A stretch of 5,876 bases of DNA, taken from a virus. The notes beneath the pieces were generated by a model. The model did no database searches. It saw only the letters and a program-made list of their open reading frames with translations, and had not been told where the DNA came from. The stretch lies in the IMG/VR virus record IMGVR_UViG_3300045988_022706. One strand, written 5' to 3'. The position numbers and the translations under genes were made by a program. Positions 1 through 5,876 of the stretch are shown piece after piece. Position 1 is the stretch's first letter, and each line of letters opens with the position of its first letter.

Positions 1-55
1 GCAAGGTTGCTCAGTAGTCCGCTCATCATTTGCAGTGCGTTTGCGGTGTTTACGC
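1..55. repeat. Terminal redundancy: 1-55 is identical to 5822-5876 (55/55 nt). It marks circular closure of a 5821-nt genome rather than a biological terminal repeat.
   Basis: Direct comparison of the first and last 55 nt of the window shows them identical. An ORF (VP2) continues in frame across this junction. Confidence 0.95.
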
Positions 56-281
56 TGCTTTGGTTGCCGAATGTGGTAATACCTGTTGGCGTGCCGATTT
101 GTGTTGCACCGATTTGCTGCGGTGCTGTTACACTGCCTGTTGTGGTCTCGCTGCCTGTTGTGGTCTCGCTGCCTGCCTCTTGGCTGTTCTTGGCGCCGCT
201 TTGGTTACTGCTTGTTATGATGCCTGTTAACATGCTCAGTCCTTGCATGAGGTATGGCATAAAGCTTAATAATGTCTCCAT
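1..281 (-). CDS. VP2: 5' (N-terminal) part of the minor capsid / DNA pilot protein VP2. The longest ORF starts at the ATG at 279-281; alternative ATGs lie at 258-260, 246-248 and 231-233. It is continuous in frame with 5230..5850 through the circular junction, and codons at 30-55 are duplicated at 5851-5876. The full protein is about 290 aa.
   Basis: Manual minus-strand translation from 281 to 30 gives METLLSFMPYLMQGLSMLTGIITSSNQSGAKNSQEAGSETTGSETTGSVTAPQQIGATQIGTPTGITTFGNQKQRKHRNALQ, followed directly by MMSGLL... at position 29, which equals 5850. There is no stop for 84 codons in this frame. An AAGGA motif lies 6 nt upstream of the ATG at 231-233. Confidence 0.6.
   Translation of the reverse strand, partial: METLLSFMPYLMQGLSMLTGIITSSNQSGAKNSQEAGSETTTGSETTTGSVTAPQQIGATQIGTPTGITTFGNQSSVNTANALQMMSGLLSNL
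133..175. repeat. In-frame 18-bp tandem repeat of ctgcctgttgtggtctcg, about 2.4 copies, inside the VP2 N-terminal region. It encodes the Thr/Ser/Gly-rich stretch ...GSETTGSETTGS...
   Basis: Exact copies at 133-150 and 151-168 and a partial copy at 169-175, read directly from the sequence. Confidence 0.9.
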
Positions 282-309
282 TCAAAAATAGCCCCGCTTT
301 TGCGGGGCT
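282..309 (-). terminator. Rho-independent terminator on the viral strand immediately after the VP1 stop codon. The stem is AGCCCCGC/GCGGGGCT (8 bp, GC-rich) with a 4-nt loop, followed by ATTTTTGA.
   Basis: Perfect inverted repeat at 290-297 and 302-309, with loop tttt at 298-301. On the minus strand the hairpin is followed by a T5 run. The VP1 stop TAA is at 320-322, 10 nt upstream. Confidence 0.75.
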
Positions 310-319
310 TCCTCCTTTC

Positions 320-1993
320 TTAGATTCTTTCGATGCCCGGAATGCTGTAGATGGGCATTTCGCGATACCAGTCTTCCGTGAAATAGAAGTCACACAAGAA
401 TTGGTGGCTTTTTTCGCTCGTCACTGCAATTGTTCGGTCAACGTTCTGCGTTCCTTCCTGAATCCACTCCGCCGAGAGACGCGGGAGTTTGTCATAATCG
501 TCCGCATAGTGCCATGCATCCAGTGACGTCTGATAGTTAGACCGCATTTCTCCGGTTACGTAAGAAGGCTTGTAGCGGTAATCTGCCCATGCCTCTTGAT
601 AGCCAAAGATTTCGTCATCTTCTGCCGTGCCTTGTGCATAGATTTCACGATTATACACCGGCTGTTCGCCCAGTGCTGCTAGACGCGGGTCGTAGTAGGT
701 GAATCGCCCGCCACGTGTCCACTTGGTTGCAAGCCCCTGCTGGTAGCTGTGCTCTACTCGTACCACTGCCAGTCCGATGATGTAGCCGTATTCGGTTGCT
801 GCATAGTCTACCATCTGCTTGCTGCACGTGGTCAAGCTGTATGCTGCCGTATTGCCTAGTGCCTGTCCGGTTGTCGGGTCTGTTTGGCTCGTCTGGACGA
901 CTTGGTTTACATTGATTGCGATGCGCTGACCGCCGATGTACTCAGGAATTTGAAGCCTGCTGTCTGGACTTGTTACGCCCCATGTGCCGGAAAGGAACTC
1001 GCGATAGCGCGTGCCGTTGCGTGCATCTGCCTCAAAGATGTGCTGCAGTGCGATGCTCATTCGTAAATCTGCAATGCTGATTGCGCTTACTCCGCTTAGG
1101 TCTGCTGACAGAATTCCTTGTCTTCCTGTTTCTCCGTTTGCGTCCGTTCCGATAATGTTTGCGTATTGGTTCGGATTTGGCCGCGTTGTCATGTTTTGAT
1201 TGAATATGTAATTTTTATGGCTAGCTGCACTCGCTGTGTTGAAGTAGATAGATTTACTATCTGTGTATAGGTTTCCGTCTATATCCTTTAACTGTACTGG
1301 TGCATCACCCGCTAGGCTGATTTCTACAGGGTCATTTTTTAACGGCGTTGGGAGACAGGATGTGTAATAGTCGTGGAATTTTCCGGCCTTTGCCGGAAAT
1401 CGTGCGTATGCGGTCCCTTCATTTATGTTTGTCGTCAGGCTCGGTTTGTTTAAGTAGAATTCTTTGGTTGCGTTTCCGGGATTGGGTTCTTTTCCCGCGT
1501 CATCGGTTTTTTTGAACCCTACCATTAACGGTGCTTCTAGATTTTCATCTCTGAACCATTCGTTATAAATCATGGCATATGCGCGTGCCGGCAGTGCGTT
1601 TACCTTGATTTCATTTTTGATTCCGGTTGGCAGTCCGAAATAGTCTCCTAAACTGCCACTCACTAGGCCGCTTTGGCCGCCGATTTTGCAAGTCGGTGTG
1701 CTATATTCTGTCTTTTCTGCCCAGTAGTCGGTGTCATTCTCGCCGAACATGTTCTCCCAGTGTTCCCAGAGTAGACGGCATGGAACAAAGAAGAAATAGG
1801 TGTCCATGTACGCGTTATCCATGATAGGATAGATGGGTGTACTCATGCGGATAAGGCCGTTCAGGCGTACACGTGCTGTATCACCTGGAAGCACTTCGTC
1901 ACAGTAGATGGGTACCAGTTCGCCTTCGTTGATGGTCGTTAAGAGCTGGTGGCTTCGGTCAAACTTGCTTCGCGGTCTTTCCATTCGTGGCAC
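320..1993 (-). CDS. VP1: Microviridae major capsid protein VP1 (F-like). The ORF track starts at a GTG at 1991-1993; the more likely ATG start is at 1982-1984 (MERPRSKFDRSH...).
   Basis: 557-aa ORF. Its N-terminus contains the family-typical motifs FDRSH, LVPIYCDEVLPGDT, STPIYPIMDN and YFFFVPCRLLW, and its size matches gokushovirus VP1 proteins (about 530-570 aa). Confidence 0.95.
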   Translation of the reverse strand: MPRMERPRSKFDRSHQLLTTINEGELVPIYCDEVLPGDTARVRLNGLIRMSTPIYPIMDNAYMDTYFFFVPCRLLWEHWENMFGENDTDYWAEKTEYSTPTCKIGGQSGLVSGSLGDYFGLPTGIKNEIKVNALPARAYAMIYNEWFRDENLEAPLMVGFKKTDDAGKEPNPGNATKEFYLNKPSLTTNINEGTAYARFPAKAGKFHDYYTSCLPTPLKNDPVEISLAGDAPVQLKDIDGNLYTDSKSIYFNTASAASHKNYIFNQNMTTRPNPNQYANIIGTDANGETGRQGILSADLSGVSAISIADLRMSIALQHIFEADARNGTRYREFLSGTWGVTSPDSRLQIPEYIGGQRIAINVNQVVQTSQTDPTTGQALGNTAAYSLTTCSKQMVDYAATEYGYIIGLAVVRVEHSYQQGLATKWTRGGRFTYYDPRLAALGEQPVYNREIYAQGTAEDDEIFGYQEAWADYRYKPSYVTGEMRSNYQTSLDAWHYADDYDKLPRLSAEWIQEGTQNVDRTIAVTSEKSHQFLCDFYFTEDWYREMPIYSIPGIERI

Positions 1994-2009
1994 TTGTGCG
2001 AAATGGTTC

Positions 2010-2435
2010 TCACTGTTTCGGTTCGTTGTCTTTCACCTCTTCCTTTTTTTCTTCCTCTTTCGGCTTCGGCTGTTCGGTCTGTTGCATCTGTTTCAGCTGT
2101 TCCAGCGTTTTGTCTGCAGCCTCGGCTTTTTCGTGCATCGTCATGATATCCTTCGGCAGATTTTCGAGGTCAGTTCCTTCGGTGTATACCATGCTTTTTG
2201 CTTTGATGCTGGTGTCCCCTGCTTCCAGCCGTGCGATTGCGCTTGCAAGGTCGTAGCCCTCGCCGGCTCGCTGGATTTTCTCGTATGTGTTTTCATCCGG
2301 CTGCTCGATGTAGTCGGTAGTGCCGTTCGTTTGCTTTACTGCTTTCCACGTTGGCGCGGTCTTGCTGCCCGGATTGTTCGGCACTCTCTCGGTCGGTAGT
2401 CCATAGTATCTTACCATTGCATCAGGATTTAACAT
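2010..2435 (-). CDS. Hypothetical 141-aa protein immediately upstream of VP1. It is acidic with a Lys/Glu-rich low-complexity C-terminal tail. It may be an internal scaffolding (VP3-like) or accessory protein, but this is unassigned.
   Basis: ATG start at 2433-2435 and TGA stop at 2010-2012. It is on the same strand as all other genes, overlaps the upstream ORF by 14 nt, and ends 16 nt before VP1. Confidence 0.55.
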   Translation of the reverse strand: MLNPDAMVRYYGLPTERVPNNPGSKTAPTWKAVKQTNGTTDYIEQPDENTYEKIQRAGEGYDLASAIARLEAGDTSIKAKSMVYTEGTDLENLPKDIMTMHEKAEAADKTLEQLKQMQQTEQPKPKEEEKKEEVKDNEPKQ

Positions 2436-2709
2436 TGGTTGTCTCCTTCAGGTCGATTAGCCGTGCGATGTGTTCAGGCATTGCTTCGCTCATGTAGCCG
2501 GTTTCTGTGTCGAACTCACCCAGTTCTACGAGCGAAATATCTTCGATTTCACTCGGTTTGCTTTCGTTGGCCTTCCATCGTGCCGTTCGGACTGCCTGTG
2601 CCCTGTTGTTCTGCAGAAACGGCTGAGAGTAGCCGTTGGTCAATGCATCGTGGAATGAATAGAATTTCAGTTTCATGTTTTTCCCCTTACTCTTTGTCTT
2701 TGTTTGCAT
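2422..2709 (-). CDS. Hypothetical protein, 95 aa from the ATG at 2707-2709. The more likely start is the internal ATG at 2674-2676 (84 aa, MKLKFYSF...), which is preceded by AAGGGG at a 4-nt spacing. It contains a ...SLVELGEFDTETG... segment and may be a VP3/VP5-like accessory protein, but this is unassigned.
   Basis: The ORF is in the gene-strand orientation and is packed tightly against its neighbours with overlaps. A Shine-Dalgarno-like AAGGGG lies at 2681-2686. Confidence 0.5.
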   Translation of the reverse strand: MQTKTKSKGKNMKLKFYSFHDALTNGYSQPFLQNNRAQAVRTARWKANESKPSEIEDISLVELGEFDTETGYMSEAMPEHIARLIDLKETTNVKS

Positions 2710-2803
2710 CCTTCAGTGCGTGGTAGATTTCGTCGAGCTTTTCAAGGATGTTCATCATCAGTGCAATTGCTTCCCTAACGTCCTTGACCTTGATTAATGC
2801 CAT
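2687..2803 (-). CDS. Small 38-aa ORF (MALIKVKDVREAIALMMNILEKLDEIYHALKDANKDKE). It is predicted to be helical and is not in the ORF track because of the size cut-off.
   Basis: Manual translation gives an ATG at 2801-2803 preceded by GAAGG at a 6-nt spacing. The TAA stop at 2687-2689 sits immediately before the SD and ATG of the next gene, a pattern typical of translational coupling. Confidence 0.3.
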   Translation of the reverse strand: MALIKVKDVREAIALMMNILEKLDEIYHALKDANKDKE

Positions 2804-2833
2804 TTTACGCCTTCTTTCTTTTGTTTGTATCGT

Positions 2834-2950
2834 TTACAGCCGGATGCCGCCCCGTGATACCTTCGGTCGGACGTTGATGTTTTTTACTCGCTTGGCAGTC
2901 TGAGTAAATTTTTTCTGGTCGCCATGACCCGCTCCGCTTCTGTGTGCCAT
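2834..2950 (-). CDS. Small, highly basic 38-aa ORF (MAHRSGAGHGDQKKFTQTAKRVKNINVRPKVSRGGIRL). It is a candidate J/VP8-like DNA-binding (genome-packaging) protein.
   Basis: Manual translation gives an ATG at 2948-2950, 2 nt after the peptidase stop, with a GGGGG motif 7 nt upstream and a TAA stop at 2834-2836. The protein has 6 K, 6 R and 2 H against a single D. It is the same size as the phiX174 J protein (38 aa). It is not in the ORF track because of the size cut-off. Confidence 0.4.
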   Translation of the reverse strand: MAHRSGAGHGDQKKFTQTAKRVKNINVRPKVSRGGIRL

Positions 2951-2952
2951 TT

Positions 2953-3354
2953 TTACACCCCCTTTCTGTATTTTTTCTCGGTTCGCACATCAAAGTGCAC
3001 CCAAGTGTTGTATACGATAATGCCGCATTCATCCGGGACGATTTCATTCAGTTTGTTTGCAAGTTCTTTTGCGCTCATGCCATTGACCCGGATATCTGCT
3101 GCCATACCGCACATGTGGTAGCTGTATTTTGCTCCGTTGCATTTTTTGTTCCACTCTGGTGTTCTGTATCCGCTGTTTATGTGTACTGGCTTTCCAATTT
3201 TGTTTCTTAGAATGTCAAGTATCGACACCAAGTGGTCGTCTACATAAACCACTTGTGAACCGTCTTTACATGCAAATTCTTGTACTTTAAAGTGCTGTCC
3301 TATTTTTTTGTTTGCTTCTTTGTCCATGATATAGCATTTAATCATCTTTGTCAA
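2953..3354 (-). CDS. Peptidase M15 family zinc D-Ala-D-Ala carboxypeptidase-like cell-wall hydrolase, the likely lysis enzyme. The track ORF begins at a TTG at 3352-3354; the more likely start is the ATG at 3343-3345, preceded by AAAGGAGA, giving a 130-aa protein.
   Basis: The protein carries the motifs F-KVQEFACKDG, SGYRTPEWN, HMCGMAADI and WVHFD, which are characteristic of the peptidase_M15_3 zinc-binding H/D/H triad. Confidence 0.85.
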   Translation of the reverse strand: MTKMIKCYIMDKEANKKIGQHFKVQEFACKDGSQVVYVDDHLVSILDILRNKIGKPVHINSGYRTPEWNKKCNGAKYSYHMCGMAADIRVNGMSAKELANKLNEIVPDECGIIVYNTWVHFDVRTEKKYRKGV

Positions 3355-3535
3355 TCTCCTTTTCGGTAAAACATGTTCCTACTTTGCGGACTTGGTATAA
3401 AGAGTAGATTCCTGGATTTGCTTCTGCGTATTCTTTGAATGTTTTCTTTGCTGCTTTTGGTTCTGCTGTGACTAGTCGGATGGTGGTCACTTTTCCGTTT
3501 TTTTCTAGCTTTCGGATTTCATATACGTGCATCAT
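3338..3535 (-). CDS. Hypothetical 65-aa protein, the first gene downstream of the promoter. Its stop overlaps the peptidase start in the sequence ATGATTAAATG.
   Basis: ATG start at 3533-3535 preceded by AAAGGAAGG at a spacing of about 8 nt. It is on the coding strand and immediately downstream of a consensus promoter. No recognisable domain was seen. Confidence 0.5.
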   Translation of the reverse strand: MMHVYEIRKLEKNGKVTTIRLVTAEPKAAKKTFKEYAEANPGIYSLYQVRKVGTCFTEKEIDKDD

Positions 3536-3562
3536 GGTTTTCGCCTTCCTTTCTGTGATTAT

Positions 3563-3591
3563 ATTTTATCATTTTTTTTAAAAAAAGTCAA
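3563..3591 (-). promoter_or_regulatory. Sigma70-type promoter on the viral strand: -35 TTGACT (3586-3591), a 17-nt spacer, and an extended -10 TGATAAAAT (-10 hexamer 3563-3568, TG at 3570-3571). It is preceded by an A8 UP-like tract (3593-3600).
   Basis: The motif was read directly on the reverse complement. The spacing and the hexamers match the consensus at 5/6 and 5/6 positions, and an extended -10 TG is present. The predicted transcription start is about 20 nt before the ATG of the 65-aa ORF. Confidence 0.6.
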
Positions 3592-3648
3592 GTTTTTTTT
3601 AGAATTTTAATTGATATATTAGTAACTCGGTTTTGCTCCTTTGTTTTG

Positions 3649-3717
3649 AAAGCGCTTTAGCGCTCTGCCGTGTGTAGCGTATGCGGAACTCGGCTAAATC
3701 CATTCCTTTTTAGCGCT
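3649..3717. promoter_or_regulatory. Cluster of the palindromic hexamer AGCGCT at 3651-3656, 3659-3664 and 3712-3717, plus the variant TAGCGT at 3675-3680. It includes a 10-bp palindrome AAAGCGCTTT (3649-3658) and lies just downstream of the VP4 stop. It could be an operator or a weak terminator hairpin (AGCGC-TAAA-GCGCT).
   Basis: Seen directly in the sequence. The function is inferred only. Confidence 0.3.
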
Positions 3718-3724
3718 GTGCGCG

Positions 3725-4729
3725 TCATGCTTTTGGTTCACGCCACTTTTGCTTTAGCTTGTCTTTTTCTTTTTGAATGTTGAGATACGTTTCGTAATCT
3801 ACGCTTGTGCTCTGTTCGAGATTGACTAAACTTTGTATTGCGCTGCGTCTACGTTTGGCTCTAACCTCTCTCAGCTCGTCAGAATGTGCTCTAAAATAGC
3901 TTTCTGTGTCTTGGCTGGTATCTTTATCTAGAATCTTATCAAAATAGCGTGGAGGCCTTTTCTCGCGTCCTCCTGCGCATATGATGCTATCTGTTTTTAG
4001 GATTTCATCTTTGTGTTCGTTTAGATACTTTTCGCCGATGCCTTTTGACATGATTCTAAATTCAGGTTCTCTACCTTCCATCCAGTATTTTGCCGCTTGC
4101 TCTGCACCTATGGCTTTTTTGTTGACGTACTGTGCCACGTATGCAAAACTTCCTGGTTGTGCTGGTGAAAAGTCTATCATGCCTTTGCCCCAGATTTTTT
4201 GTAACCATTCCGACTTGAAATAGCTATTTCCTTTTTGGTTTTTATACCATTGTGCATCCGGTGGCTTTAATCCGAATACTATTGCATGATAGTGCGGTCT
4301 TTTTGTTCTGTCGCCGTATTCAGCCGCTAGGAAGTATTTTATCGGTTTCTTGTATGCTTTTCGTAGCCGTTTTATAAACAGCTGTACGTCTCGCTTATTC
4401 ACTGTCTGGCTTTGAATGCTTCTGTAGCCTTTGAGAATCTCGCCGTATGGGATGTGCTCATCATCATATGTCAGTGTTAGAAAAATCACATCGTCCCACT
4501 CTTTGGCCTCTAGCTCTATTCTGGTTGCCCATTGTTCAGCCATTTGTTTCCGGCAATATTCGCACTTACCACATGGTAACAATGCGAATTTTCCTTTTTT
4601 GATTCCGTCCATGATGTCTGCTTGCAGTCCTTGCTTGGATAGGTTTTCTAGACTTCCCCACAGTTGTGGTTTTTTCGTGTCCATCTGAAATACTAATGGT
4701 TTTGTACATGGCATTTTTGTTACCGGCAC
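3725..4729 (-). CDS. VP4: Microviridae replication initiation protein VP4 (A-like HUH rolling-circle endonuclease). The track start is a GTG at 4727-4729; an ATG at 4712-4714 is an alternative start.
   Basis: The 334-aa protein carries a C-x2-C-x2-C motif in CGKCEYC, motif I FLTLTYDD, the HUH motif PHYHAIVFG, and the double-tyrosine motif YVAQYVNKK. Confidence 0.93.
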   Translation of the reverse strand: MPVTKMPCTKPLVFQMDTKKPQLWGSLENLSKQGLQADIMDGIKKGKFALLPCGKCEYCRKQMAEQWATRIELEAKEWDDVIFLTLTYDDEHIPYGEILKGYRSIQSQTVNKRDVQLFIKRLRKAYKKPIKYFLAAEYGDRTKRPHYHAIVFGLKPPDAQWYKNQKGNSYFKSEWLQKIWGKGMIDFSPAQPGSFAYVAQYVNKKAIGAEQAAKYWMEGREPEFRIMSKGIGEKYLNEHKDEILKTDSIICAGGREKRPPRYFDKILDKDTSQDTESYFRAHSDELREVRAKRRRSAIQSLVNLEQSTSVDYETYLNIQKEKDKLKQKWREPKA

Positions 4730-4756
4730 AAGCTTCCTTGTCTATCTTGTGCCGGT
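4722..4756. promoter_or_regulatory. 11-bp perfect inverted repeat ACCGGCACAAG / CTTGTGCCGGT with a 13-nt spacer, straddling the annotated VP4 start codon. The SD-like AAGGAAG of the mRNA falls in the loop.
   Basis: 4722-4732 is the reverse complement of 4746-4756. A regulatory role in VP4 translation or transcription is inferred. Confidence 0.4.
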
Positions 4757-4790
4757 TGACACCTCGCTTTCTTTTTATATTAACTTGTTG

Positions 4791-4808
4791 TAGTAGTAGT
4801 AGTAGTAG
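4791..4808. repeat. (TAG)6 trinucleotide microsatellite, which reads (CTA)6 on the viral strand, in the region upstream of VP4.
   Basis: The sequence tagtagtagtagtagtag was read directly. Confidence 0.9.
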
Positions 4809-4977
4809 TGTTGAAAGTGTTGAAAACTCGTTTTTTTAACGTTATTACGTTTAATTATTGCCTTTTTCTATGTTGAAAACTTTGTTGAAAACTTGTTGAA
4901 TTGTTGAATGTTCGTCATTTTGACGAATTTCTTTGTGCAACTTGTTGTTGAAAACCTGTTGAAAGTGTTGAAAACTC
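4809..4977. repeat. Array of nine GTTGAA(A/T) iteron-like repeats in three clusters (starts 4810, 4819; 4872, 4884, 4895, 4903; 4947, 4958, 4967) with spacings of roughly 8-12 bp. It is bounded by a 21-bp perfect direct repeat TGTTGAAAGTGTTGAAAACTC (4809-4829 and 4957-4977). A 7-bp palindrome TTCGTCA-TTT-TGACGAA (4911-4927) sits between clusters.
   Basis: All repeat copies were located by direct reading. The near-helical phasing and A-tract content suggest protein-binding iterons and/or intrinsically curved DNA, which would fit an origin or control region. Confidence 0.8.
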
Positions 4978-5017
4978 AAGTTTTCCACATTCTCTATTTT
5001 CTGGATTATTGTTTCTT

Positions 5018-5054
5018 TGCGCGTGTGTGCACGTTTCGTGCGCGCGCGCGTATA
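5018..5054. repeat. Two strictly alternating purine-pyrimidine tracts, tgcgcgtgtgtgcacgt (5018-5034) and gtgcgcgcgcgcgtata (5038-5054, including (GC)5G). These are Z-DNA-prone and CpG-rich.
   Basis: Read directly. Both tracts are at least 17 nt of uninterrupted purine/pyrimidine alternation. Confidence 0.8.
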
Positions 5055-5115
5055 GTGATAATAGACTGTTTGCCTTACTGCAGCGGCAGCCACCCGCGTA
5101 GGGGGGCGTGACGCA

Positions 5116-5148
5116 AGGGGGGTCGCAAACCAATCTTGCGACCCCCCT
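5116..5148. other. Perfect 13-bp GC-rich hairpin AGGGGGGTCGCAA-(ACCAATC)-TTGCGACCCCCCT. A second G6 tract lies upstream at 5101-5106. It sits in the VP2 3' region and noncoding DNA, and is a candidate ssDNA structural element (complementary-strand origin, packaging signal or transcript 3' structure).
   Basis: 5116-5128 is the exact reverse complement of 5136-5148, with a 7-nt loop. The hairpin is not followed by a U-tract on either strand. Confidence 0.6.
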
Positions 5149-5229
5149 CTTCTATACATGATTTTGTTTTGGTTGCCGCTTGTCTGGTGTCCCCTGTGTT
5201 GGGGAAACCTTAGCTTTGCGCGGAAAGGG

Positions 5230-5876
5230 TTAATCTCCTTTGTACGGTTCTCCAGATTTGAACCCATCAATTAGTTTGCGTCTTCTTGCTGTCTTGTCGA
5301 TAGTATCTTTAGCTACTTTGTCAATGCCTCCTTTGGCTGCTTTACCAGCCTTTTTTACTGCGTCTTTCGCTGCTTTGCCTGCTCCTGCAAGGCCTGCGCC
5401 TAACTTGTTAGCTGCATAGCTGTACTGTTGCGCCTGTTTTGCGCTTGAGGTTGCCAGCTCGCTTGCTGCCTGTTCCCAGCTTTTCGCATTCTTAAACTGT
5501 TTTGCGCTGGTGGCCTGTTTTGCCAGCTGTAAGTATTTGTCTGCTAGCTCTGCTGTGTTGTTGCCGTATTCGTACATAGCGCTTACACTTGCAGCCTGTG
5601 CGCTCTGCTGGTTATAACGTTGGTTTCCAATGCTTGCTGATGCTCCGCTTGTTGACGCTGTTGCACCGTTGGTTGCTGCCAGAATAGGATTGATTCCCGC
5701 TGCAATCATGTCCTTCACGGTATCTTGATACGCTGTCCCGCGCATTTCCTTCTGAAATGCTCGTTCCGCTGCTGCTTCTGCGCTGTTGTACTTCTTGGCG
5801 CTTGCTTGGCTTCCAGCATTTGCAAGGTTGCTCAGTAGTCCGCTCATCATTTGCAGTGCGTTTGCGGTGTTTACGC
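5230..5876 (-). CDS. VP2: Minor capsid / DNA pilot protein VP2: the C-terminal 206 aa plus 26 nt of upstream in-frame sequence. The ORF continues past the window end into positions 56-281 through circular closure.
   Basis: The conserved pilot-protein block ...AAAERAFQKEMRGTAYQDTVKDMIAAGINPILA... is present, together with Gly/Ala/Lys-rich low-complexity repeats such as AGKAAKDAVKKAGKAAKGG. These features, and the gene's position after VP1, are typical of microvirus VP2. Confidence 0.85.
   Translation of the reverse strand, partial: VNTANALQMMSGLLSNLANAGSQASAKKYNSAEAAAERAFQKEMRGTAYQDTVKDMIAAGINPILAATNGATASTSGASASIGNQRYNQQSAQAASVSAMYEYGNNTAELADKYLQLAKQATSAKQFKNAKSWEQAASELATSSAKQAQQYSYAANKLGAGLAGAGKAAKDAVKKAGKAAKGGIDKVAKDTIDKTARRRKLIDGFKSGEPYKGD

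Follow-up and report, generated by a model that had tools for sequence, protein, structure and literature searches.

An oriC-like module of DnaA-box-like repeats and CTA trios in the VP2-VP4 spacer of a gut gokushovirus genome

The stretch of DNA analysed here (the window; IMG/VR record IMGVR_UViG_3300045988_022706, 5,876 nucleotides (nt)) is the complete circular genome of a gokushovirus-type microvirus, 5,821 nt in circumference. Its genes are arranged VP4-(orf65)-M15-VP5-VP3-VP1-VP2-spacer. The spacer, which separates VP2 from VP4, contains an element that we term module B, in which repeated 9-mers resembling DnaA boxes are followed by a run of CTA trinucleotides and an AT-rich stretch. Comparison with related phages and with bacterial chromosomes establishes the anatomy, conservation and specificity of module B at the sequence level, as well as its likeness in sequence, order and orientation to Firmicute replication origins. 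Overall, we consider it very likely that the window is a complete gut gokushovirus genome whose spacer holds a 240-nt miniature of a Firmicute origin unwinding module. The part that the module may play in the phage, and in particular the suggestion that host DnaA acts on it, is weighed below against other explanations of the same repeats.

The VP2-VP4 spacer and its oriC-like module

Between VP2 and VP4 the first-pass annotation had placed a large noncoding region. The region is real (515 nt, 5229..4715) but it is not empty, being structured and highly conserved, and we describe it as modules A, B and C (Table 1). About 240 nt of the spacer constitute the best-conserved DNA of the clade. Module B is 94.6-96.4% identical to the corresponding DNA of the two closest GenBank genomes, as against 85-88% for the genes. 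It contains eight DnaA-box-like 9-mers, and seven exact copies of TGTTGAAA are present on the plus strand where 0.32 would be expected. In an alignment of 25 representatives, mutually below 85% identity, the conserved columns correspond to the boxes, to the first three CTA units and to CTACAACAAGTT, and the stretches between them vary and carry 1-nt insertions or deletions (indels). Protein coding of module B is ruled out by this pattern, in which the repeats are kept and single-nucleotide indels fall between them.

The same data bear on the idea that the spacer encodes a protein of 138 amino acids (aa) from an open reading frame (ORF) at 5267..4851, comparable to the "unknown ORF" found beside the peptidase in some gut microviruses. 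The frame is open in the window, translation of its C-terminal part yields tblastn matches of about 90% in relatives, and Roux et al. (2012) mention unknown ORFs adjoining the peptidase, one of them on the complementary strand (PMC3394797). However, the frame has no ribosome-binding site, its N-terminal half falls within module A, absent from most relatives, and the alignment shows 1-nt indels and shifting stops, with conservation organized in 8-9-nt repeats and not in codons. A coding function is highly improbable, and the ORF was rejected as a gene on the grounds of this conservation pattern and of the lack of any family match in Pfam or PHROGs.

In the basal unwinding system of oriC, a single or paired DnaA box is separated by a short spacer from three or more DnaA-trios (3'-GAT-5'), after which comes the unwinding region (PMC8287927). 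Boxes were judged by the criteria of Pelliciari et al. (2021), which allow no more than 2 mismatches to TTATCCACA and ask for a second, tandem box within 4 mismatches. The TTTTCAACA box at 4826..4818 has 2 mismatches to TTATCCACA and the tandem CTTTCAACA box at 4817..4809 has 3, while the inverted TTTTCCACA box at 4981-4989 has 1. The (CTA)6 run stands at a spacer of 0 from the proximal box and of 9 from the better one, and an AT-rich stretch follows the trios. Chromosomal origins of this kind are located beside dnaA and dnaN, but module B lies in the VP2-VP4 spacer of a phage; it is therefore called oriC-like and not filed as an oriC. In most other clades the arrangement is TTTTCCACA, a spacer of 4-5 nt (often GC-rich) and then CTACTACTAC.

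The distribution of the module was followed with a strict pattern, defined as a box with at most 2 mismatches to TTATCCACA situated no more than 16 nt before at least 3 exact CTA units. Of 165 microvirus-size loci, 108 have a single occurrence of this pattern, and shuffled sequences have none. In 1.08 Mb of other DNA it was confined to a gokushovirus-containing contig, one true oriC and one siphovirus contig. The carriers of the module are loci L001-L078 and L088-L091 together with about 40 further IMG/VR loci. In GenBank it went unannotated in 37 gokushovirus records from the faeces of humans, pigs, mink, raccoons and monkeys, and in one more from human blood. It is lacking in Chp2, in phiMH2K and in environmental relatives. 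The number of boxes ranges from 7 to 10 per genome (median 7), and the 756 boxes in the 108 modules include 420 copies of TTTTCAACA, 207 of CTTTCAACA and 50 of TTTTCCACA. The spacer measures 0-4 nt in 72 of the 108 modules, 3-6 perfect CTA units follow, and the next 20 nt have a mean A+T content of 72%.

Orientation and position of the module differ among the carriers. The arrangement of the window's clade, direct and upstream of VP4, is that of 60 genomes; in 44 (e.g. L013, L075, L088 and L089) the module is inverted and downstream of VP4, and in 3 (L090, L091 and L192) direct and downstream, so that its AT-rich end is directed toward VP4 in 104 of 107. The composition of the coding strand (A 0.365, T 0.17) is the same for either orientation, and the sequence of the box is unchanged in clades whose VP4 is only 33-39% identical to that of the window. 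Since a siphovirus-type contig also has one, the origin-like module is not confined to microviruses. This contig (L153, a 39-kb human-gut IMG/VR sequence without VP4) carries, at 1807-1976, about ten TTTCAACA boxes, CGCCCC, CTACTACTA and a 30-nt AT run. Its module comes immediately after the last of the tail genes, with a ParE toxin gene nearby, and its tail genes include Dit, a Gp37-like gene and one for a large tail protein. Arrays of the same box are seen in L143, L156 and L186 as well.

Turning to bacterial origins, the B. subtilis scaffold reads 5'-ACTTATCCACAAATCCACAGGCCC followed by TACTATTACTTCTACTA (supplement, PMC8287927), and its order and orientation are those of the window (5'-GTTTTCAACACTTTCAACA followed by CTACTACTACTACTACTA) and of subclade 2 (5'-...TTTCAACAGGCCC followed by TACTACTAC...). 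The phage orientation is likewise that of the scaffold 5'-...TTATCCACA...GGCCC followed by TACTATTAC. The same supplement predicts a module for Ruminococcus albus 7 (TTTTCAACA-GGT-TTTTCAACA) and another for C. botulinum (TATCAACA-AGCC-(CTA)6), and gives TTTCAACA for the Butyrivibrio box nearest the trios. In C. difficile the trio reads CACCTACTACTATTACTACTATGA (PMC7561715). A metagenome scan with the tandem box of R. albus returned 104 loci. Four of them are genuine regions in which boxes, (CTA)3-5 and AT-rich DNA lie between dnaA and dnaN, these two genes having been assigned by tblastn with B. subtilis protein sequences; L225, one of the four, has only a degenerate CTA-ATA run. When the phage module is aligned with the metagenomic origins, its 5' triple box falls at the dnaA-proximal end and its 3' box-trio end at the dnaN-proximal end. 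Alignment scores are 46-53 versus 22 +/- 2.7 for shuffled sequences, and the reverse complement scores at background. At the level of sequence, module B is colinear in layout with Ruminococcus-type dnaA-dnaN origins.

Two further identities for the repeat, a Spo0A box (TGTCGAA) and parS, were considered and set aside, as they leave the GC spacer, the CTA repeats and the oriC colinearity unexplained. A plasmid collection searched with the conserved spacer gave no match.

Module A is found after VP2 in only about 8 relatives and its position varies: in L041 it lies between the box module and VP4, subclade 2 retains a 45-nt remnant downstream of the boxes, and other clades have a similar GC-alternating element after the AT-rich stretch. 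In module C, the ATAGACAAG loop of the hairpin is conserved and compensatory changes occur at two pairs, with an extra change on both sides at a terminal pair that half the rows leave unpaired. The hairpin has a covariation score of 0.230, as compared to 0.089 +/- 0.021 in shuffles, none of 500 of which reached it, and the module may be a split ribosome-binding site or a regulatory hairpin. The hairpin in the VP1/VP2 gap lies between the Shine-Dalgarno sequence AAGGAGG and the VP2 ATG and splits that ribosome-binding site (279-318); from its sequence it looks like a terminator or attenuator. VP4 and VP2 thus share a layout of Shine-Dalgarno sequence, stable hairpin and start codon. A sigma-70 promoter scan found none in the spacer.

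Circle, genes and lineage

Table 1. Features of the window. Coordinates are those of the 5,876-nt window; bp, base pairs; SD, Shine-Dalgarno.
Feature	Position	Strand	Description
Terminal redundancy	1..55	none	exact copy at 5822-5876; circle of 5,821 nt
VP2 DNA pilot protein, N-terminal part	1..281	minus	start at 281, continues into 5230-5821
Hairpin in VP1/VP2 gap, GC-rich	290..309	minus	AGCCCCGC-AAAA-GCGGGGCT, then T run; from terminator scan and sequence reading
VP1 major capsid protein, 554 aa from ATG	320..1984	minus	PF02305, E 2.6e-146; GTG at 1993 is an alternative start
VP3 internal scaffolding protein, 141 aa	2010..2435	minus	PF09675 at 23.4 bits; clade homologues match
VP5 (Phage_ORF5, annotated DNA-binding protein)	2422..2709	minus	PF20577, E 1.2e-13; phrog_1670, E 2.2e-17
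Peptidase M15_3 (LAS zinc peptidase), 130 aa	2953..3345	minus	PF08291, E 1.1e-21; phrog_894 "endolysin", E 1.1e-38
orf65, hypothetical protein, 65 aa	3338..3535	minus	AGGAAGG ribosome-binding site; in only part of the clade
VP4 HUH rolling-circle initiator, 329 aa	3725..4714	minus	PF23343, E 4.6e-21; phrog_942, E 3.8e-107
Module C	4715..4766	minus	SD-like GAGGTG 4765..4760; 11-bp hairpin 4756..4722 with loop ATAGACAAG; 7 nt; VP4 ATG
Module B, oriC-like element	4767..5016	minus	boxes, (CTA)6, AT-rich stretch
AT-rich stretch of module B	4790..4767	minus	CAACAAGTTAATATAAAAAGAAAG; 80% A+T in first 20 nt
(CTA)6, DnaA-trio consensus	4808..4791	minus	directly after the last two boxes
Box CTTTCAACA, two copies	4965..4957, 4817..4809	minus	module B
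Box TTTTCAACA, five copies	4974..4966, 4954..4946, 4891..4883, 4879..4871, 4826..4818	minus	module B
Box TTTTCCACA	4981-4989	plus (inverted)	module B
Small hairpins of module B	4927..4911, 4851..4838	minus
Module A, accessory, GC-rich, 213 nt	5017..5229	minus	13-bp G-rich hairpin 5148..5116; alternating-CG hairpin 5050..5019
VP2 DNA pilot protein, C-terminal part and stop codon	5230..5821	minus	290-aa ORF on the circle

The first-pass annotation had read the window as one full turn of a 5,821-nt circle, from a 55-nt terminal redundancy and a VP2 frame that continues over the junction, and both observations hold. The 55 nt are the longest exact repeat of the two ends, and VP2 is a 290-aa minus-strand ORF that runs from 281 through the junction to 5230. 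Related IMG/VR contigs have exact end repeats of 55, 77, 99, 119 or 141 nt, lengths that we take to be typical assembler k-mer sizes, and the repeat is on this account the mark of a circular contig and no biological terminal repeat. Closure is read from the assembled contig; even so, an open genome whose repeat arose as an artefact of linear ends or of assembly is hardly credible, given that VP2 is whole only across the junction and colinear with circular GenBank records (among them KX513876.1 with its uninterrupted VP2), and that an exact copy of VP1 has been recorded on 4 contigs, of which the longest has 5,876 nt. All genes do lie on one strand, as had been stated, with the qualification that it is the minus strand: the window reads the strand complementary to the genes, and the nine ORFs that form the gene set on the circle are all minus. 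The coding strand of the window is strongly asymmetric (36.8% A, 16.9% T), a skew that is clade-wide and similar in phiMH2K but not in Chp2 (A 0.286, T 0.304).

Searches with VP1, VP2 and VP4 bore out the Microviridae hallmarks that had been noticed in these proteins, with Pfam and PHROG matches for VP1 and VP4, and a PHROG match for VP2. The limits previously given for VP1 (320..1993) and VP4 (3725..4729) are those of the ORFs counted from the first GTG; the likely starts are the ATG codons at 1984 and 4714. VP1 resembles gokushovirus capsids in the PDB (9cgm_A, 2.6e-116; 8des_A, 2.9e-112; SpV4 1kvp_A, 6.4e-5), those of its best GenBank matches that are classified below family level are gokushoviruses, and its profile indicates the F-type capsid of Microviridae and Gokushovirinae. 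VP4 has the predicted motifs I-III and the two tyrosines of an HUH initiator (FLTLTY 78-83, HYHAIVF 141-147 and YVAQYVNKK 192-200, the last with two Tyr), as well as CGKCEYC at 48-54, and is 93-98% identical in aa sequence within subclade 1. The match of VP2 to the pilot-protein family phrog_18604 covers positions 2-284 of the 284 in the profile (E 2.4e-130); several other PHROGs annotated "pilot protein" were matched too, but no Pfam model. An 18-nt tandem repeat (2.4 copies, 100% match) at 133-175 in VP2 codes for repeated GSETTT near the N-terminus.

The remaining ORFs include two that the first-pass annotation had listed as accessory ORFs before VP1 and that are instead VP5 (PF20577) and the scaffolding protein VP3. 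The identity of VP3 follows from its clade: the window protein scores under the 25-bit cut-off of the Chlamy_scaf family PF09675 at 23.4 bits, but 10 of 11 clade homologues match that family (best E 1.9e-10). The gene in the VP3 position of MG945233 is annotated "similar to VP3", and a clade VP3 profile matches the VP3 of Chp2 and phiMH2K weakly (probability 23.5%). VP5 probably starts at an internal ATG at 2676 (M12), which is preceded by an AAGGGG ribosome-binding site. With VP3 and VP5 the predicted gene set is that of Gokushovirinae, and the two proteins would act in internal scaffolding and packaging, respectively. The spike protein G and external scaffold D families, which are marks of Bullavirinae, were not matched by any of the nine ORFs in Pfam or PHROGs.

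The M15_3 peptidase has the predicted His-Asp-His zinc ligands of the LAS group (H77, D84 and H117), and the SxHxxGxAxD segment with H77 and D84 aligns to PDB 1lbu; the acquired enzyme most likely serves as an endolysin. No holin-like transmembrane ORF was found on the coding strand, and an 80-aa ORF overlapping the peptidase had no family match and no support. For orf65 neither Pfam nor PHROGs gave a match, and tblastn detects homologues of 42-93% identity in about 20 relatives. Two good sigma-70-like promoter matches were seen on the minus strand, TTGACA-17-TATCAT at 3326-3354, which overlaps the M15 start and has a counterpart before the M15 region of L013, and TTGACT-17-TAAAAT with TG at 3563-3591, upstream of orf65. 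An Rfam scan of the whole window at E <= 1 produced no match.

The gene order had been reported as non-canonical and possibly the mark of an unclassified gokusho-like lineage. The transcriptional order stands as described, apart from the two genes that had gone unrecognized in it, and it does differ from the classical Chlamydia-phage order, which in Chp2 is VP1-VP2-VP3-ORF8-ORF4-ORF5, with VP3 after VP2 and before ORF4/Rep. It is not new, however. Roux et al. (2012) described the order VP4-VP5-VP3-VP1-VP2 for human-gut Gokushovirinae, with an M15_3 peptidase in 5 (PMC3394797), and Kirchberger et al. (2022) found the position of VP3 to be variable and peptidases to be recurrent accessory genes (PMC9239249). 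The window has this human-gut arrangement, as do KX513876.1 and about 75 IMG/VR genomes, the closest of which (L005) is 87.8% identical over its full length; MT121961.1 is similar in layout. A lineage of its own without VP3 in the usual place would agree with an order unlike that of Chp2 and phiMH2K, where VP3 follows VP2, and with a VP3 slightly below the Pfam cut-off. It is very improbable in view of VP3 and VP5 directly upstream of VP1, of the published order, and of a VP1 that is 74.7-78.7% identical to those of the four closest GenBank gokushoviruses. Even the closest genome, L005, falls below 95% identity, used here as a rule of thumb for species, and the window adds a new species-level entry to an extensive clade of human-gut gokushoviruses that had been sampled before. 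The same virus has an earlier entry in nr, the third-party annotation "MAG TPA: Microviridae sp.", where the identical M15 protein is DAO54079.1, "MAG TPA: peptidase [Microviridae sp.]". One contig, L011 (IMG/VR, 10,711 nt), contains a clade member together with a second, unrelated VP1 (41% identity) and is either a two-genome join or a co-assembly artefact. The claim of a novel gene order fails, and the spacer is the one part of the genome worth following.

Possible roles of the module

The reading that we prefer is that mammalian-gut gokushoviruses of many kinds, with 108 or more genomes from several clades whose Reps are about 35% identical to that of the window, carry a miniature of the host origin, through which host DnaA would open, and possibly replicate, the double-stranded form. 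We assign it a probability of roughly 0.45. In the proposed mechanism, host DnaA would bind the boxes on the double-stranded replicative form, spread from there onto the trio strand and open the AT-rich DNA that adjoins VP4. Because the trio strand is the complement of the gene strand, it exists only in the duplex. Opening might load the host helicase and lead to Rep-independent, plasmid-like replication or persistence; alternatively, it might help VP4 to start rolling-circle replication. The parts of this proposal are not equally secure: binding of DnaA to the boxes is rather probable, and a true origin or unwinding role has close to, but not quite, even odds. A host factor is favoured over a phage protein because the box is constant while VP4 falls to 33-39% identity, because the module tolerates either orientation, and because bacteria and a siphovirus share this architecture.

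A number of observations weigh against this proposal. The strict pattern fails in 42 of about 150 related loci, some of them truncated at a contig end or with irregular trios. Of the 2 mismatches between the commonest box, TTTTCAACA, and TTATCCACA, one is at position 6, the fixed C of the TTWTNCACA consensus, and this box counts as a DnaA box solely through analogy with the origins predicted for Clostridia. Both the binding and the unwinding are read from sequence only. We know of no microvirus that needs DnaA, and replication of the phiX174 type needs only Rep together with host helicase and polymerase. As for the host, a VP4 search for a prophage or host among 185,579 species genomes found no integration. 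The only loci that it returned (L085-L087) are a free gokushovirus contig of 5,739 nt, assigned to a metagenome-assembled genome of "Bacteroides sp. CAG:545", and two sub-kb Acinetobacter lwoffii isolate scaffolds whose VP4 fragments are 94-99% identical to the window's; these look like binning or sequencing carry-over and not like host evidence. Finally, L302 (ENA ERZ1742712 NODE_713, 29,218 nt) has at 9882-10419, at the contig end, 537 nt of gokushovirus DNA covering the 3' part of orf65 and M15 at 94% identity, and its other genes are those of a spore-former (germination proteins, trigger factor, deacetylases). The join falls inside orf65 and inside a called alpha-amylase ORF, the assembly is probably chimeric, and L302 was not used as host evidence.

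Other roles have been considered for the same repeats. They might be iterons for VP4 (Rep) or VP5, which would make the spacer a "bind plus nick" rolling-circle double-strand origin like those of pMV158 plasmids and of circular Rep-encoding single-stranded DNA (CRESS) viruses, with no part for DnaA. The module always adjoins the VP4 gene and has one end toward it, iterons beside nick sites are common in rolling-circle replicons, and the invariant CTACAACAAGTTAATAT loosely recalls the phiX174 origin CAACTTGATATTAATAAC. Yet Rep-specific iterons normally co-vary with Rep, and here the repeats are identical across the divergent VP4 proteins described above; boxes, GC spacer, CTA repeats and AT-rich stretch recur together in dnaA-dnaN origins and in the siphovirus without VP4; and the unchanged coding-strand composition of the 44 inverted genomes argues against a module that fixes the displaced strand. 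Taken together, we regard iterons as unlikely. A VP4 nick site inside the module, which would flip the packaged strand in the inverted clades, was weakened as a candidate by the same compositional evidence and by the weak match of CAACAAGTTAATAT to the phiX174 origin (about 12/20 by eye, in AT-rich context).

A G4-like complementary-strand origin on the packaged single strand, with (CTA)n as the primase start site, appears distinctly unlikely. Firmicute DnaG primases prefer 5'-CTA. The C. difficile helicase stimulates primase at 5'-d(CTA) (PMC7561715), and in this clade (CTA)6 is flanked by hairpins and lies on the coding strand, which is presumably the one packaged. On the other hand, the 44 inverted genomes carry (TAG)n on their coding strand with no change in composition, and eight boxes, a GC spacer and oriC colinearity would go unexplained. 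A primase-start role could coexist with the DnaA model. More improbable again is a decoy resembling the E. coli datA locus, in which the copies of the replicative form would soak up DnaA and block host initiation without any origin function. Such a decoy would work at any orientation or position and would suit both the 7-10 boxes per genome and a replicative form that is present in many copies; but boxes alone would then suffice, and conservation is just as strong in the short GC spacer, in trios one to three and in the AT-rich stretch, which is the signature of an unwinding module.

Host, significance and known systems

The sequence data point to a host among the Clostridia, with a Ruminococcaceae-like bacterium as the best guess, which is offered as a pointer and not as an identification. 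The suggestion follows from the Shine-Dalgarno sites (before M15, VP3, VP5 and orf65), from the peptidoglycan peptidase with no transmembrane lysis ORF, and from the box variant, since TT(A/T)TCAACA plus (CTA)n matches Ruminococcus- and Clostridia-type origins. It agrees with the host that Roux et al. suggested from the similarity of the peptidase to that of Faecalibacterium (PMC3394797). Our own search for M15 homologues was uninformative on the host, with no bacterial matches among the best 120.

As a genome alone, the window adds little, being one more member of an abundant gut gokushovirus clade. For the module, no description of an oriC-like or DnaA module in gokushoviruses or microviruses was found in open-access papers. 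The hosts of gut gokushoviruses are a long-standing question, to which a host-type origin mimic would give a testable pointer, toward Clostridia. Were the proposal true, hosts might be predicted from sequence, by the box variant together with (CTA)n, and a virus family whose replication is ascribed to its own rolling-circle Rep alone would have a DnaA-dependent step. Microviruses can stay in one individual's gut for years, with no lysogeny known for them, and DnaA acting on the replicative form would offer a mechanism for such plasmid-like persistence. It would also be a clear instance of a control element of the host chromosome copied into a minimal virus, for which the known parallel is the dif site of enterobacterial gokushoviruses.

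The closest known system at the level of the genome is KX513876.1 (human gut gokushovirus SH-CHD13, 2017), which has the same gene set and order (VP4, M15, VP5, VP3, VP1, VP2), 87.7% nucleotide identity over 90% of the genome (98% aa identity for VP4 and 79% for VP1) and the same oriC-like module at 96% identity. Unlike it and the IMG/VR clade L005-L078, the window has orf65 and the 213-nt module A after VP2, both carried by only some relatives. Chlamydia phage Chp2 and Bdellovibrio phage phiMH2K have homologous VP1 (37-39% aa identity), VP2, VP4, VP5 and VP3 and, like the window, a circular genome with genes all on one strand. In contrast, VP3 follows VP2 in these two phages and precedes VP1 in the window, and they have neither the M15 peptidase nor the box/trio module, their genomes being about 1.2 kb smaller.

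Module B shares with the incC element of B. subtilis (Richardson 2016/2019; Pelliciari 2021) tandem boxes of the same sense, a spacer of 0-4 nt that is often GC-rich, at least three 3'-GAT-5' trios and an AT-rich stretch, and the ...TTTCAACAGGCCCTACTACTAC of subclade 2 resembles the ...ATCCACAGGCCCTACTATTAC of B. subtilis. It differs from a bacterial oriC in lying next to the gene for a rolling-circle Rep, in a 5.8-kb phage genome that is presumably packaged as single-stranded DNA, and not between dnaA and dnaN, in having about half the length of the host region, and in that most boxes are of the TCAACA variant. The origins of phiX174 and G4 (Bullavirinae) offer a second likeness, as short cis-acting DNA signals that direct host replication enzymes to a microvirus genome. 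That of phiX174 is a 30-nt site in gene A cut by the Rep protein and that of G4 consists of hairpins read by primase; neither is known to have DnaA boxes. Among the 185,579 species genomes, no dif-type prophage of the window's clade was found. The dif motif of Enterogokushovirus EC6098 (Kirchberger and Ochman 2020) is nonetheless a further parallel, in that a gokushovirus holds a noncoding copy of a host chromosomal cis-element; in EC6098 this copy is a 28-bp recombination site for integration via host XerC/XerD, whereas in the window it would be a replication-origin module.

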